The position numbers were made by a program, and so were the translations under genes. Under the pieces are notes generated by a model that was not told the DNA's origin, did not search any database, and was given only the letters and a program-made list of their open reading frames with translations. This document shows, piece by piece, positions 10,244 through 64,000 of a stretch of DNA of 64,000 nucleotides. Position 1 is the stretch's first letter; the number at the start of each line of letters is the position of its first letter. Source of the stretch: an uncultured cyanobacterium (lineage in GTDB: Bacteria > Cyanobacteriota > Cyanobacteriia > Cyanobacteriales > Nostocaceae); contig OY970166.1 of NCBI GenBank assembly GCA_963706595.1, positions 352,001 to 416,000 of the forward strand. The letters are read 5' to 3'.

Positions 10244-11082
10244 CGCATCCGCACACTACCCGCCTGACAATCTCGCAACCAAGTTTTAACTGCTTGGGCA
10301 ATTACACCCTTGCTACTATCCCTGGGGGGCGATACTACTTGTTGTTGTTGAGGATAAGCACCAATTTGGGTAAACATCATTACTAAACGCCACCCAGAGT
10401 TTGTTTTTGTTAATAGAAGCCAGTGAAACTGTTGCGATTCAACGATTTTACCAGCTATATACTGCCGTTCTAAAGTAGTAAAGAAAACTTGCTCTATTCC
10501 TGTTGCTTTACTTTTCTGCTCATCGGCGTTGTATCCACCAGAGTTAATGGGTAGGGGCTGAAACTCTGGTTTTCCTGCTAGTATCACATAACTGTAAATA
10601 TCACTGCTACGACTGCGACGGCGGGCGCGTTGAGTAACACGGTTTGCATAACTTGGTAAATCTTGCAATAGCTGAGTAGTTAATAATTCTAAACTTTGTT
10701 CAGAACAAGTCGAACTTAAGCCATTTTTAACTGCTTGACTCTGAGTTAGGAAAACAGGTGTATTGGCCTCACTGTTCACGGGATATGGAAAAACCAACGC
10801 GAAACCTAACCCCCTAGCCCCCTTCCCTACCAGGGAAGGGGGAAAAGTCAAAGCCTCTCCCCTTGTAGGGGAGAGGTTTGGAGAGAGGTTTTCTAGATGC
10901 CGTGAAAAGTCAGGTGTATTGGCAAATGCTGAGTTATTGATGCTATTTGCCGCTACTAGCCACAAGCCGAAAGCGCAAAGCCATAAGCCATAATTTTTGT
11001 TTTTGACAAATCCAAAATCCAAAATCCTCAAGCCCCTAGATTTATCTGTGGAATCAATCAAAATCCAAAATCCAAAATCCAA
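10183..11082 (-). CDS. Conserved-type cyanobacterial hypothetical protein with in-frame MITE insertion; start uncertain
   Basis: LLQDLPSYANRV...QVFFTTLERQY core; the first ~25 codons derive from heptamer repeats. Confidence 0.7.
   Translation of the reverse strand: MDFGFWILIDSTDKSRGLRILDFGFVKNKNYGLWLCAFGLWLVAANSINNSAFANTPDFSRHLENLSPNLSPTRGEALTFPPSLVGKGARGLGFALVFPYPVNSEANTPVFLTQSQAVKNGLSSTCSEQSLELLTTQLLQDLPSYANRVTQRARRRSRSSDIYSYVILAGKPEFQPLPINSGGYNADEQKSKATGIEQVFFTTLERQYIAGKIVESQQFHWLLLTKTNSGWRLVMMFTQIGAYPQQQQVVSPPRDSSKGVIAQAVKTWLRDCQAGSVRMRQSQLLPPSEPPLSQLLLLP
10767..10914. mobile_element. 148-bp MITE, copy 1
   Basis: TIRs CCTCACTGTTCACGG / CCGTGAAAAGTCAGG; 8-bp TSD TGTATTGG at 10759-10766 and 10915-10922. 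Confidence 0.88.
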
Positions 11083-11099
11083 AATCTAAAATCTAAAAT
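11008..11099. repeat. AAAATC(C/T) heptamer tract with embedded CAAGCCCCTAGATTTATCTGTGG dispersed repeat
   Basis: Related composite at 19737-19824; related CAAGCCCCTG motifs at 46928-47056. Confidence 0.75.
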
Positions 11100-11119
11100 T
11101 GTGTAGTTAACTGATACTT

Positions 11120-12500
11120 TTAACCGAGACATTCTCCGACATTTGAGATATCGTGAACATCCAGTACAACATCACCAACTGAGTCAGTGAAGGTGGTATC
11201 CCACATTGCCTTGAGGAAAATCCCCACGGCTCCATTAAAATCACGCGGTATTTCATAACCACAATTAGGGCAAAAAAAGTTCTTAGAACTACCAAGTTTT
11301 CTATGAGTGTTACCGCATTTAGTGCAAGTCTTCGATGTATATTCTTCAGTTATCCTTACCAATTTGGAACCGTAGCGGTTACACAAATGCTCAAGGGTTT
11401 GAGAGAACTGATAGAATGCCCAAGTCATCATCGCACGGGAAGTCTTATTTCTTAACTTCCGCTTCTTTTTAACAACCATTTGGGAAGTTTCAAAGGTGGG
11501 AAGTACAATCACATCGTAGTTTTTAGCTAGATATGACCCGACTTGTTTATGGCACTCAGAGCGTAGATTCTTGATTCTGGTTCTGAGTCTTTCCATCCCA
11601 AGTCTTATTTTGTATCTCAGACGCTTAAACTTATTTCCAACGCTACTATCATGTCTTGATTTTAGTTTATCCAGGTGTGAGCAAAGTTTAGCTATTTTGC
11701 TGAAATCCCCATTGCCAAACTCCAAGAAATCGCTACCGTCAAAACCAGTCATAAAAGTTCTAATGCCGGGATCAAGTGCGATTACTTTATTTGTCACACT
11801 TACCGTTTGCTCCAATTCTACGGGGAAGTGAGCGAACCAACGACCTTTGTTATAGGTCAATTCTGTTGACCCATCAGTTAGAATGCAAAAGTCTTGTCCT
11901 CTAAATTCAGGTGGTGGTAGATGTTTGGTAGTTGACACCATCCACCTACCATTTTTGTAAGCAGTAGGGTCAAACTGAATGGTTAATTTCTGGTCACGAA
12001 TACTTCGGAATTTGGCAATTTTTAGTCCGGCTTGAGGATGTGGTTTTTTATCTTGACCCTTACCAATAGTCTTTGGATTCTTAGCCGTTTCTGACCATGC
12101 TTTGTACGCTTCCATTGAAGCGTTGTCTAGTATCTTAGAAACGTTTAAGTCTAAACACCATTGGGGTATTAATCCAGAACCTTTAAGCATGGTTCTAAAC
12201 CCCATCTTTCCACCTTTCTTGCCTACTTTACTAAAACCTTGATTTTCGTTCAGATAGGCGATTGAGATGTTATAAACTTTACGAACAGCAGCAACCCATT
12301 TCTTCCAAATAATCTCAAGTTCCTTTACTGGGTATACTCGGTAGCTCACTGTCTTCAGCAACTTGTTTTTTGTACTTTCTAAGCCCGTACAATCGACAAC
12401 TGAAGACATGGATAATGGCAAGGATATCTTCGACCATTTCCCGTTCTGGGCTGAGGTTCGTTTGGTTGAGAACCAATATCTCAGTCTGCTGCCTAGCACA
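11120..12500 (-). CDS. tnpB: TnpB RNA-guided nuclease, Fanzor2/pro-Fanzor-like; start uncertain (frame continues upstream)
   Basis: RuvC-I ALDPG, VIVLPTFET, TEEYTSKTCTKC...CPNC zinc finger, RuvC-III RDFNGA. Confidence 0.88.
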
Positions 12501-13000
12501 ATCCATGAGATAAGATCGAACCCAAAGCGACAAAGCCGATCTTTGTGGGCAATGACAACAAGTTTGCAAGTGTTTGTGAGAACTCTGTCCAGTAAGGTTT
12601 GAAGACCTTTTCGTTTGAAATTGAGTCCGCTTCCGATGTCGGTGATGATTTCTGCGTCGGGGTAACGAGCAGCAAGAAACTCAATTTGTTGAGAGAGGTC
12701 GTTTTTCTGACCGCGACTTGAAACCCTGGCATATAAAAGGGTAGCTCGTTCATCTGCGGGATTACCGCGTCGAACAGGGATAACTGAATCGAGGTTATAT
12801 CTTCTTTGCCCCCCCTGAGTGAAGATACCTTCAATTTTCCCGTCTTCAAGCCACCTTTCGAGCGTTTTGGTGCTGACTCCCAGTCTGGTAGCAGCGACTC
12901 TTGGAGGTACATAGTTTATTGGCATGGACTAAGTTTGTTACTTGTCCTACTATACCACAAAATGTCTGGGTATGTCTGACTATGTTAGGGTAAATTAAGT
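11124..13000 (-). mobile_element. IS607-family element (serine recombinase TnpA plus TnpB)
   Basis: GG dinucleotides (minus strand) at 13001-13002 and 11124-11125; GACAT/ATGTC short repeats near both ends; no TSD. Confidence 0.82.
12315..12925 (-). pseudogene. tnpA: IS607 TnpA serine recombinase, frameshifted at ~12500
   Basis: N-terminal HTH, YARVSS catalytic motif, DIGSGLN, DRLCRFGF; C-terminus ILVLNQ...EMVEDILAIIHVFSCRLYGLRKY lies in another frame. Confidence 0.88.
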
Positions 13001-60864: not shown

Positions 60865-62118
60865 ATGACTAAACCAGTTGATATTCTGATTCTCTCGAAT
60901 GGACCCGGTGAGGTGACAACCTGGGTGCGTCCTGTTGTTAAGGCTTTACGGCAAGAACTGGGGGATGATCCTACTGTGGTGAGGATTTCTGTGGTTTTGT
61001 CTCCTTGTCCCAATGCTACGGGTAAGGAAGGGGCGATCGCTCTTTCATATCCAGAAGTTGACAGGGTACAATCAGCAGAGCATTTTTGGCAGTTTCTCCT
61101 GTGGGGTAAGACTTTTGAGAATTGGGAATGGCGCGATCGCGGTGTGGTAGTCTTCTTAGGTGGTGATCAAATTTTTCCCGTAGTCATTGGCAAAAAACTG
61201 GGATATCGCACAGTGGTTTACGCTGAATGGGATGCTCGTTGGCATAATTTGATTGACCGTTTTGGCGTAATGCAGGCTAAAGTTGCAGAAAAGGTTTCTC
61301 CAAAGTTTGCTCACAAATTTACGGTTGTGGGGGATTTGATGCTTGAGGTTTCAGAGGTTTCAGACGCTATGGATAAAGACGCGATGAATCGCGTCTCTAC
61401 AAGTGAAATAATTGGTTTACTTCCGGGGTCGAAAGCTGCAAAATTATCCCAAGGTGTACCATTATCTTTGGCTATTGCTGAATATATTCACGCAAAAAGA
61501 CCCGAAATCAGATTTGTGATTCCCGTTGCGCCGACGTTGGATTTACAAACTTTAGCGAGTTTTGCCGATGCACAGAAAAACCCTTTTGTCAATATATTTG
61601 GAGGGGTGTCGGCGACTTTAGTTGAATCTGAGTATCCAATGCTGAAAACTGAAACGGGTTTGTGTTTGGAATTGTGCAGAGAAAATCCCGCCCACGAATT
61701 ATTATCTCAATGTACTATCTGTTTAACCACCGTAGGCGCAAACACGGCTGAACTCGGTGCTTTAGCTGTGCCGATGATTGTTTTAATACCTACTCAACAA
61801 CTTGATGCGATGCGTTCTTGGGATGGTTTACCGGGATTATTAGCTAATTTACCTGGGGTGGGTTCTAGCTTTGCTAAGGTAATTAACTCGCTGGTGTTGA
61901 GTCGCAAAGGTTTATTAGCATGGCCGAATATCTGGGCGAAGGAGGAGATTGTACCAGAATTAGTGGGCAAACTACAGCCGCAAGAGGTTGCAGAAATGGT
62001 TTTGGACTTTTTGGATCATCCAGAAAAATTAGCAGCAATTAGGGCGAAATTACGCAGTGTTAGGGGTGAAAGCGGTGCATCTCAAAAGTTAGCAGGTTTA
62101 GTGCGTGATGTTTTGTAA
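60865..62118 (+). CDS. Lipid-A-disaccharide synthase-related glycosyltransferase (LpxB-like)
   Basis: ILSNGPGE, LLPGSK, GANTAEL, AWPN...IVPEL. Confidence 0.78.
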   Translation: MTKPVDILILSNGPGEVTTWVRPVVKALRQELGDDPTVVRISVVLSPCPNATGKEGAIALSYPEVDRVQSAEHFWQFLLWGKTFENWEWRDRGVVVFLGGDQIFPVVIGKKLGYRTVVYAEWDARWHNLIDRFGVMQAKVAEKVSPKFAHKFTVVGDLMLEVSEVSDAMDKDAMNRVSTSEIIGLLPGSKAAKLSQGVPLSLAIAEYIHAKRPEIRFVIPVAPTLDLQTLASFADAQKNPFVNIFGGVSATLVESEYPMLKTETGLCLELCRENPAHELLSQCTICLTTVGANTAELGALAVPMIVLIPTQQLDAMRSWDGLPGLLANLPGVGSSFAKVINSLVLSRKGLLAWPNIWAKEEIVPELVGKLQPQEVAEMVLDFLDHPEKLAAIRAKLRSVRGESGASQKLAGLVRDVL

Positions 62119-62121
62119 ATT

Positions 62122-62400
62122 AGCCCTGGCGACTAGAAGTCGCGGCTACACAGACAAAACCCACCTCCGTGGGTTGAAAAGCGAATTATATTCGCCTAAA
62201 ACTTTCTATTTTTTATCAGCCCTGGCGACTAGAAGTCGCGGCTACACAGACGAAACCCACCTACGTGGGTTGAAAAGCCTTAGTTTGTATTTAGTCCGCG
62301 CAGGCGGACTTTGTTTGTGTAGTAGCGAATTCATTCGCCTAATTTCTATTAGCTACACTAAACCCACCTACGTGGGTTGAAAAGCGAATTCATTCGCCTA
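62122..62400. repeat. 61-bp direct repeats plus partial and inverted copies (REP-like cluster)
   Basis: 62122-62182 and 62218-62278 differ at 2 positions; partial copy 62351-62390. Confidence 0.85.
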
Positions 62401-63117: not shown

Positions 63118-63510
63118 TTATTCTTCTTGACCGTTGGTTGGGGCTGATGATTTGCTGAACAGAAACCACCATAGTTCTAGTCCAATTAACGCTATACCAC
63201 CTATAGTTACACCAACTTTTAATCCTAAAGGTTGGTCTATGGCTTCCTGACTTTTCACGTTATGAGAAAAAGCTAACGCAAAACCTAACCCCCTAACCCC
63301 CTTCCCTACAAGGGAAGGGGGAAAATTTAAAGCCTCTCTCCTTGCAGGGGAGAGGTTTGGAGAGGGGTTTTCCAGATCCAGTGAAAAGTCAGCTATGGCT
63401 TGAAATTGCCTAGTTTCCCCTGATGAATGGGTGGGTATTGCTGCTGATGCGGTTCCCATAGACAAACCGAAAGCAGTCAGGCTAGCCCACAGCAGATTTT
63501 TGCTGAACAT
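63118..63510 (-). CDS. Small membrane/secreted protein carrying an in-frame MITE insertion
   Basis: Signal-like N-terminus; C-terminal VTIGGIALIGLELWWFL; follows the P1B ATPase. Confidence 0.75.
   Translation of the reverse strand: MFSKNLLWASLTAFGLSMGTASAAIPTHSSGETRQFQAIADFSLDLENPSPNLSPARREALNFPPSLVGKGVRGLGFALAFSHNVKSQEAIDQPLGLKVGVTIGGIALIGLELWWFLFSKSSAPTNGQEE
63246..63393. mobile_element. 148-bp MITE, copy 2
   Basis: TIRs CCTGACTTTTCAC / GTGAAAAGTCAGC; 8-bp TSD TATGGCTT at 63238-63245 and 63394-63401. Confidence 0.88.
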
Positions 63511-63530: not shown

Positions 63531-64000
63531 TCAAGATATGACTTTTGGTTGAAATTTACGCAATCTCAGGGCATTCGTGACTACAGAAACCGAAGACAAA
63601 GCCATTGCAGCACCGGCAAGAATCGGATTTAGCAACCAGCCAAAGAACGGAAACAGAATTCCCGCAGCGATAGGAATGCCAATAACGTTGTAGATAAAGG
63701 CAAAGAACAGGTTTTGGCGGATATTGCGAATGGTCGCCCGGCTGAGTTGAATGGCTGTGATGATTCCTTGTAAGTCTCCCGAAATCAGTGTAATATCGCT
63801 AGCGGCGATCGCCACGTCTGTTCCTGTACCAATAGCAATTCCCACATCTGCTTGTGCGAGTGCAGGCGCATCATTAATCCCATCGCCTACCATGGCCACA
63901 ATTTTAGCTTGACCCTTTTCACTTTGCAGAGATTGAATCATCGCCGCTTTTTGGTCTGGGCGCACCTCTGCAAATATTCGCTGGATGCCAACTTGTTGCG
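63531..64000 (-). CDS. P1B-type heavy-metal (Cu) ATPase, C-terminal part (PacS-like); 5' end outside window
   Basis: [32 protein letters not shown]. Confidence 0.88.

Follow-up and report, generated by a model that had tools for sequence, protein, structure and literature searches.

How can a mobile element settle inside protein-coding genes and leave their reading frames open? The question arises from a 64,000-nucleotide stretch of a contig from an uncultured cyanobacterium of the Nostocaceae, hereafter the window, in which two open reading frames (ORFs), A and B, each carry a copy of the same short element. A first-pass annotation of this DNA had described a non-autonomous transposon of 148 bp with an 8-bp target-site duplication, inserted in frame in two genes, and had proposed that its geometry lets it colonise ORFs as a portable peptide module, by analogy with the Rickettsia palindromic elements (RPE). 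Its placement of the two copies was right: copies A (10767-10914) and B (from 63246) are 86% identical across 147 aligned bases (BLAST E 6e-45), have inverted ends and are flanked by repeats that differ between the two sites. They also share one orientation and one stop-free frame in their minus-strand host ORFs, and the two peptides quoted for them were correct. This frame, s0, begins CCT GAC TTT TCA (P D F S). Coordinates are collected in Table 1.

Table 1. Positions, within the window, of the two element copies, their flanking repeats and hairpins, their host ORFs and a neighbouring gene
Feature	Position	Strand	Remarks
Host ORF A, 299 aa	10183..11082	-	no Pfam or NCBIfam family
Copy A, left target-site duplication	10759..10766		TGTATTGG on + strand
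Copy A, MITE of subfamily I, 148 bp	10767..10914	-	frame s0 peptide PDFSRHLENLSPNLSPTRGEALTFPPSLVGKGARGLGFALVFPYPVNSE
Copy A, inner hairpin	10818..10842		CCCCCTTCCC-TACCA-GGGAAGGGGG
Copy A, second inner hairpin	10854..10876	-	CCTCTCCCC-TACAA-GGGGAGAGG; terminator-like in coding sense by consensus scan
Copy A, right target-site duplication	10915..10922		TGTATTGG
Host ORF B, 130 aa	63118..63510	-	no Pfam or NCBIfam family; hydrophobic C-terminal segment
Copy B, left direct repeat	63237..63245		CTATGGCTT, 9 bases
Copy B, MITE of subfamily I	63246..63392	-	frame s0 peptide ADFSLDLENPSPNLSPARREALNFPPSLVGKGVRGLGFALAFSHNVKSQ
Copy B, right direct repeat	63393..63401		CTATGGCTT, 9 bases
CopA-like heavy-metal P-type ATPase gene, 3' part	63531..63998	-	neighbour of ORF B

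The flanking repeats of copies A and B alike are spaced 156 bases, or 52 codons, apart. The geometry behind this spacing may be 148 + 8 or 147 + 9, and both fit: copy B is 147 bp long if its duplication is 9 bp, and occupies 63246-63393 if the duplication is 8 bp. The 9-base readings come from the copy B repeat and from the sole autonomous relative with flanks read; most MITE copies fit 8 or 9 equally. What stands of the original 148 bp + 8 bp is the 156-base addition in both copies, while the duplication itself may be 9 bp. Copy A appears to be flanked by a repeat of 11-12 bases because its target resembles the element end. In the coding sense, the RNA of the element has a predicted fold of -72 kcal/mol (z = -5.2) with two GC-rich hairpins, one of them terminator-like, and this stable fold and terminator-like hairpin could hamper expression of a host gene. 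Among copies of the element, the hairpin loops occur in either orientation (TACAA/TTGTA, GGTA/TACC).

Neither host ORF matched a family in our Pfam and NCBIfam scan. ORF A probably starts at an internal TTG, because conservation begins near residue 25. As the first-pass annotation had proposed, signal-peptide-like N-termini, judged by reading the translations, precede both inserts: the segment immediately before the insert reads ...LWLVAANSINNSAFA/NTP in ORF A and ...GLSMGTASA/AIP in ORF B. The latter ORF follows immediately downstream of a gene for a copper-type P-type ATPase, and its single-sequence AlphaFold model was uninformative (mean pLDDT 53.5).

Both inserts belong to a larger family. 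Queries with copies A and B gave 51 BLAST clusters in this genome (G000), 21 of which were examined as full or near-full copies; the ~30 others consist of the central double hairpin only. The element ends are the inverted repeats (TIRs) CCTGACTTTTCACG / CGTGAAAAGTCAGG, and the whole element measures 148-149 bp and carries no transposase gene. An exact direct repeat of 8-12 bases, with a different sequence at each site, flanks 13 of the 21 copies. Direct repeats flank many copies in relatives too, and are single-copy at empty sites. Of 31 related genomes, 22 have matches, among them those of every one of the 10 other species in the genus. These TIRs, target duplications and many copies, together with ends shared with an insertion sequence (IS) and with filled and empty sites, confirm that the inserts are members of a MITE family.

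Comparison among the 11 genomes of the genus gives clean empty alleles for both host genes, and with the inverted ends, the target duplications and the many copies this bears out the non-autonomous transposon of the first-pass annotation. Gene A is filled in three of the 11 (G000, G003 and G010). Six aligned congeners show an exact 156-bp gap with a single target copy, and for G004 and G007 the empty state is read from BLAST coordinates alone. Gene B is filled in two (G000 and G003) and empty in the nine others, eight of which align across the site; the ninth, G007, matches on both sides and was aligned downstream only. The gene B copy of G003 has since gained a 21-bp tandem duplication that keeps the frame.

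The annotation had also anticipated an IS that shares the ends of the element, and a scan of species-representative genomes found one. A 2.1-kb IS of Nostoc linckia FACHB-104 (L111, 3001-5101) has 27-bp TIRs starting CTGACTTTTCACGGGATGTGG and encodes a 483-aa transposase; no target duplication was seen at this copy. The 483-aa protein matches Tnp_DNA_bind (2e-10), DDE_Tnp_1 (4e-6) and, below the curated cut-off, Dimer_Tnp_Tn5 (3e-4). A 76%-identical element is multi-copy on Nostoc plasmids, and L201, on a plasmid of Nostoc sp. HK-01, is bounded by perfect 27-bp TIRs (CTGACTTTTCACGGGATGTGGAAAAGG) and flanked by a 9-bp duplication (ATCTTCACT). Relatives on Nostoc and Halotia plasmids are annotated as ‘IS4 family transposase’. 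The TIRs of L111 and L201 open with the same 21-24 bases as the MITE ends, so that most of their length matches. Tn5 ends also begin CTGAC, and Tn5 makes 9-bp duplications. In its domain matches the cognate transposase resembles the IS4/IS50/Tn5 group, whereas the window element is 148 bp long, lacks a transposase and matches the IS at its ends only. These shared ends support an IS4-family, Tn5/IS50-like IS of the Nostocaceae as the putative parent.

The parent was sought closer to the window as well. When G000 was scanned for fuzzy TIR matches, no two of them lay an IS length apart, and exact matching in G003, G016, G001, G014 and G021 gave MITE-sized pairs only. No intact cognate transposase was found in the 11 genus genomes, where the best full-length matches are 32-34% identical and belong to an IS with different ends. 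Mobilisation of the MITE in trans is thus presumptive. Remnants in G000 comprise solo ends and a 47-residue fragment that is 83% identical to the cognate transposase. A seven-copy IS4-like element of G000 (479-aa transposase, 32% identical) was considered as a partner and rejected on its different ends (GCTATCCATTACCC...).

Within the family, an alignment (A2) of 30 copies and a census of 64 sources (21 copies from G000 and 43 loci from relatives) distinguish two subfamilies; the difference is a single base close to the 5' end as read in the coding sense. Subfamily I (..CCTC-TCTCCAAACC..) is 148 bp long and adds 156 bp in the 11 copies whose duplications are clear. Subfamily II (..CCCCGCTTCCATTCC..) is 149 bp long and adds 157 bp in 8 copies; in the more distant genome G016, 158-161 bp are added in 3 copies. 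All 12 subfamily II copies count as intergenic, because the open frames that span them are at most 93 aa long or are lacking altogether. Subfamily I, by comparison, occupies nine host genes and nine intergenic lineages, against zero and 12 for subfamily II (one-sided Fisher p = 0.003; the lineages and host genes were delimited by us from flanking sequence and motif, and related genomes are not independent). The sample for this test comprised G000 and the loci L034-L065, chosen only as full-length DNA hits, with orthologues merged. The frame-preserving geometry first proposed for the element as a whole is accordingly a property of subfamily I (156 bp); it does not extend to subfamily II (157 bp), which is found only outside genes.

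Six of the 21 copies in G000 lie in long ORFs: ORF A, ORF B, and the genes for an RluA-type pseudouridine synthase, a TonB-dependent receptor, a 1023-aa FGE-sulfatase-domain protein and a TPR protein, the last of these in the antisense frame a0. The host-gene Pfam domains (PseudoU_synth_2, FGE-sulfatase, TPR and TonB-receptor) all lie clear of the inserts. Across 15 host genes, a tally that adds six from L066-L073 (picked for long ORFs and excluded from the Fisher test), 13 inserts are read in s0 and two in a0, and the remaining four frames are not used. Copy B has two to five stops in each of the four unused frames and one TAA in a0. All 15 host genes thus use a stop-free frame, and genic copies do not fall out of frame as often as chance would have it. 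Frame s0 stays open in the intergenic copies of subfamily I as well, and the corresponding frame is open in 10 of 10 clean copies of subfamily II.

The encoded peptide also recurs in database proteins. With the 48-residue peptide of copy B as query, at least 96 proteins (among 200 candidates) reach E<=1e-3; of these 96 listed matches, 85 are 216-1796 aa long. Host labels among the matches listed include Nodularia, Nostoc, Anabaena, Trichormus, Calothrix, Fischerella and others, and all named peptide and DNA matches among those listed are cyanobacterial. The protein types among the matches listed are diverse: peptide synthetases, RluA, TonB receptors, porins, CHAT, WD40 and NB-ARC proteins, ABC transporters, DnaX, nitrite reductase and RsmB. 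We scanned seven database proteins with Pfam, and in five the insert lies ahead of or between domains or in an intein: in a porin it precedes the SLH domain, in RsmB it separates the NusB from the ferredoxin-like domain, in nitrite reductase one half from the other and in an ABC transporter the membrane from the ATPase domain, and in DnaX it sits within the intein. The sixth protein gave no Pfam hit. The seventh is a 300-aa fragment of a cytochrome c peroxidase, in which the insert (32-79) overlaps the start of a partial CCP_MauG match (68-114). In a library clustered at 50%, 132 representatives match the peptide; 119 of them are under 200 aa, and these short representatives are probably gene calls on the element itself.

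Changes that arose after insertion bear on whether the genic copies are read. All 11 later indels that could be defined in genic copies have lengths divisible by three: -12 and -3 in the TonB receptor of G000, +21 in gene B of G003, -12 in L066, -48 across the element boundary in the RluA gene of G000, and 9, 9, 12, 27, 36 and 54 among four TPR orthologues. The length changes of intergenic copies are +1, +3, +4, -1 or -2, -9 and others. Variable sites in orthologous inserts number 12, 19 and 15 by codon position, with no third-position excess, against 46, 34 and 86 in the coding flanks of the RluA and TonB-receptor genes, where third positions are in excess (inserts versus flanks, Fisher p = 0.03). 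The reading frame is thus maintained while the peptide sequence seems free to change, and from this combination we infer that the insert is translated. Filled alleles are also open across species, for gene A in three genomes, for RluA (615-622 aa) in four and for the TonB receptor in three. In the RluA host gene of G000, three 1-bp insertions upstream of the insert break the frame, so an ‘in-frame’ copy is not always in an intact gene. Segment by segment along the alignments, the insert is less variable than its flanks only where the host is the TonB receptor or gene B; for RluA and gene A its variability is close to that of the coding flanks. A pooled comparison of constraint (46 of 579 sites variable in inserts, 442 of 2423 in flanks) was rejected because the gene A flanks include fast-evolving non-coding DNA.

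The account that we consider probable is that of a MITE derived from an IS4-type IS, whose in-frame subfamily I copies are retained by host-gene selection in tolerant places. A transposase supplied in trans would recognise the ~27-bp inverted ends and insert the MITE with an 8- or 9-bp target duplication. Insertion could take place anywhere, and within genes purifying selection would spare only copies in a stop-free frame at tolerant places, such as just after a signal peptide, in an inter-domain linker or in an intein. Subfamily I, which adds 156 bp and is open in s0 and, for some copies, in the antisense frame a0, could survive this filter, and its survivors would be kept as an extra peptide of 43-64 residues rich in Pro, Gly, Leu and Ser. 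Subfamily II, one base longer, shifts the frame and occurs between genes only. We infer that the peptide is neutral. The frame-preserving geometry would then be a chance pre-adaptation filtered by host-gene selection, and need not be a design of the element. Of 5000 dinucleotide-preserving shuffles of copy B, 43% contain one open frame or more, so no such design is needed. Combined with a prior of one in three for a 3n length, this rate means that roughly one MITE family in seven would have both properties by chance, and a permissive geometry is unremarkable for one MITE family among many. The portable peptide module first proposed is therefore upheld as regards in-frame copies in many genes, and the geometry credited with colonising ORFs requires no design.

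Other readings of the genic copies differ in what they make of the open frames. Genes with an insert could be dead or dying pseudogenes whose open frames are residual; the genome paper on Anabaena sp. 90 read 15 intragenic MITEs as gene-disrupting and as causes of pseudogenes (PMC3542288), and the RluA orthologue of G000 is indeed frameshifted upstream of its insert. Yet the same filled alleles remain open in several species, the later indels keep to multiples of three without exception, changes in the coding flanks still concentrate at third positions, and the domains on either side of the insert are still in frame, all of which makes general decay very improbable. Excision after transcription or translation, in the manner of an intron or intein and leaving a protein without the insert, is scarcely credible, even though one database copy lies within the DnaX intein and RNA-library contigs of two relatives join 10754 to 10911 in gene A, skipping exactly 156 bases. 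Elsewhere along their about 510-570 bases, these contigs disagree with the window in 35-47 letters. This 6-8% divergence marks them as empty alleles from other species rather than spliced RNA, and the empty DNA alleles of congeners match them. Among the RNA runs, none contained half or more of the sampled words of gene A (best 0.26). Contigs assembled at gene A from four runs comprise only the empty alleles of relatives and one 271-base contig that is identical to the filled allele and whose source library is probably DNA. The transposon ends and duplications of the element likewise speak against excision, which would leave the 3n indels and the open frame without a reason.

Two further readings give the insert, or the element, a purpose. 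The peptide might have been co-opted and be retained because it is useful in itself, perhaps as a flexible linker or periplasmic spacer, since it recurs after signal peptides and between domains, persists across species and, with the TonB receptor or gene B as host, is less variable than the sequence on either side. We find this distinctly unlikely: the inserts have no third-position excess and their residues change freely, the RluA and gene A inserts vary about as much as coding flanks do, and most congeners live without the insert. Alternatively, subfamily I may have been selected as a transposon for its 3n length and open frame, with coding DNA as a habitable niche. Such adaptation of the element, which we hold to be unlikely, would fit the restriction of genic copies to the 3n subfamily (nine host genes, against none for the 12 intergenic copies of subfamily II), the openness of s0 in intergenic subfamily I copies and of the matching frame in all 10 clean subfamily II copies, and the presence of the peptide module in at least 96 proteins of many Nostocales genera. 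But the chance expectation of roughly one MITE family in seven already covers a 3n length with an open frame, that frame is rich in codons far from stops, and host-gene selection yields ‘only 3n copies in genes’ equally well.

A bolder proposal can be set beside retention by host-gene selection. Subfamily I, one base shorter than its sister, might have become a gene-dwelling element whose hairpin-encoded, Pro/Gly-rich peptide serves as a portable linker in the Nostocales; we regard this as possible, if doubtful. If it is true, the linker would be carried by peptide synthetases, TonB receptors, porins, ABC transporters, RsmB, nitrite reductase and the DnaX intein. It would then represent large-scale ‘exonisation’ of a bacterial transposon outside Rickettsia, in which inversions of the hairpin loops generate peptide variants.

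Small mobile DNA within genes has precedents. The small dispersed repeats (SDR) of Nostoc, which Elhai et al. are said to have described in 2008, are reportedly small mobile repeats of the Nostocaceae that lie in frame inside genes; they are said to be about 21-27 nt long and to lack IS-type ends, whereas the element described here is a 148-bp MITE with TIRs and target duplications. The closest parallel in behaviour is offered by the RPE (Ogata et al. 2000, 2002), described as palindromic elements of ~150 bp that occur in frame in many unrelated genes, encode a conserved peptide and are thought to be placed where protein structure tolerates them (PMC10969869). By that description, the cyanobacterial MITE is alike in occurring in frame in unrelated genes (15 host genes and 96 database proteins) and in encoding a conserved peptide. 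It differs in phylum and in sequence, which is unrelated as far as the description of RPE and our named matches, all of them cyanobacterial, go; in its clear TIRs, target duplications and identified autonomous IS4-type relative; and in that most of its copies are intergenic and a one-base-longer sister subfamily provides a natural control. The analogy with RPE drawn in the first-pass annotation is therefore apt for behaviour: the element is RPE-like and no member of the RPE families.

MITEs described earlier from the Nostocaceae, with one of which the present family may coincide, were compared by description only. Nezha, from Anabaena variabilis and Nostoc PCC 7120 (Zhou et al. 2008), is described as ~130-170 bp long, with TIRs and direct repeats, a stable hairpin, empty and filled sites between relatives, and the TIRs of ISNpu3, an IS absent from the host genome (PMC3184786). 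The element of the window corresponds in size range, TIRs and direct repeats, stable hairpin, and empty and filled sites, and its TIRs likewise match an IS of which no intact copy was found in G000. In-frame genic copies such as those seen here are not mentioned for Nezha in the account of PMC3184786. The MITEs of PCC 7120 (Wolk et al. 2010) are about 224 bp long, against 148-149 bp here, and their ORFs are reviewed as fusing with chromosomal ORFs (PMC10969869, PMC3184786). The ‘group 1’ MITEs of Anabaena sp. 90 have three sets of inverted repeats (PMC3542288), a layout that corresponds to the ends and two hairpins of the present element. As for earlier reports of cyanobacterial MITEs lying in frame within genes, the literature covered by our searches yielded no more than reviews and the genome paper on Anabaena sp. 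90, and in-frame copies of this family may have been mentioned before.

In-frame selfish DNA in bacterial genes has mostly been known from Rickettsia; here it occurs in free-living, genetically tractable cyanobacteria. The cyanobacterial case also brings an IS4-type parent and a built-in control, the one-base-longer sister that is never seen in genes. Together these make it possible to test how proteins tolerate insertions of 50 residues, whether the peptide is neutral, and how host genes sort the variants of a transposon. For genome annotation, it follows that intragenic MITEs in the Nostocales need not imply pseudogenes.

The RluA orthologue carrying the 148-bp MITE is 615–622 aa long and intact in four congeners. 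In its counterpart in the window's own genome (G000), locus L001 (G000:C1:1253963-1255895), a single extra base has been inserted at each of three positions upstream of the MITE, and a deletion of 48 bp has taken away the first eight bases of the element. Given a marker completeness of 94% in G000 versus 98–100% in most relatives, indel errors in the assembly may be involved.

Among other proteins that match the MITE peptide, the 875-aa Nostoc DnaX protein P0075 carries the peptide at residues 225–268, within a DNA polymerase III gamma/tau intein whose splicing domain spans residues 137–315. In the 1143-aa protein P0097, the MITE peptide is matched in four stretches; a Pfam scan of this protein found no Pfam family.

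Directly upstream of ORF A, the host of window copy A, lies a 601-aa ORF encoding both a serine recombinase (residues 11–143) and a TnpB-type endonuclease (residues 195–568) (see table). Runs of the heptamers AAAATCC and AAAATCT (window 11000-11100) extend over the 5′ end of ORF A as called mechanically, and protein conservation begins only past these runs. Near the window end, a doubled amino acid stretch in a mechanical ORF between two genes suggests a further dispersed or tandem repeat.

Coordinates of neighbouring features and other mobile elements
Feature	Location	Strand
IS607-type serine recombinase and TnpB-type RNA-guided endonuclease in one 601-aa ORF	window 11120-12925	-
Mechanical ORF with ALATRSRGYTD(K/E)THLRGLKS present twice	window 62105-62380	+
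Second MITE-like family, copies	G000:C1 437945, 3120546, 5008803, 5480954 (outside window)	
Third small element, ends GCTACGGTGTACACA...	G000:C1 4242212-4242736 and 1658755-1659078	
IS4-like element, 1624 bp, 479-aa transposase, ends GCTATCCATTACCC	G000:C1 65860-67483 and 6 more copies	

A match to the cognate transposase, the 483-aa IS4 protein of the Nostoc IS with matching TIRs, is found in the related genome G006 (G006:C3:37181-37582), where a 1603-aa open frame includes a segment with 70% identity to transposase residues 185–318. The 1624-bp IS4-like element of G000 recurrently occupies the loops of GGGGAGAGG-type palindromes, and one copy lies within a MITE-like core (G000:C1 3051263-3052983). 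G000 also contains a second MITE-like family of ∼159 bp, with four copies at ≥99% identity. Copies of both MITE-type families have the third small element inserted within their hairpin loops. The second family has the same 84-bp double-hairpin core as the MITE but different ends (TTACAGCAG...CTGTAA); this core appears to be a module common to different element families.
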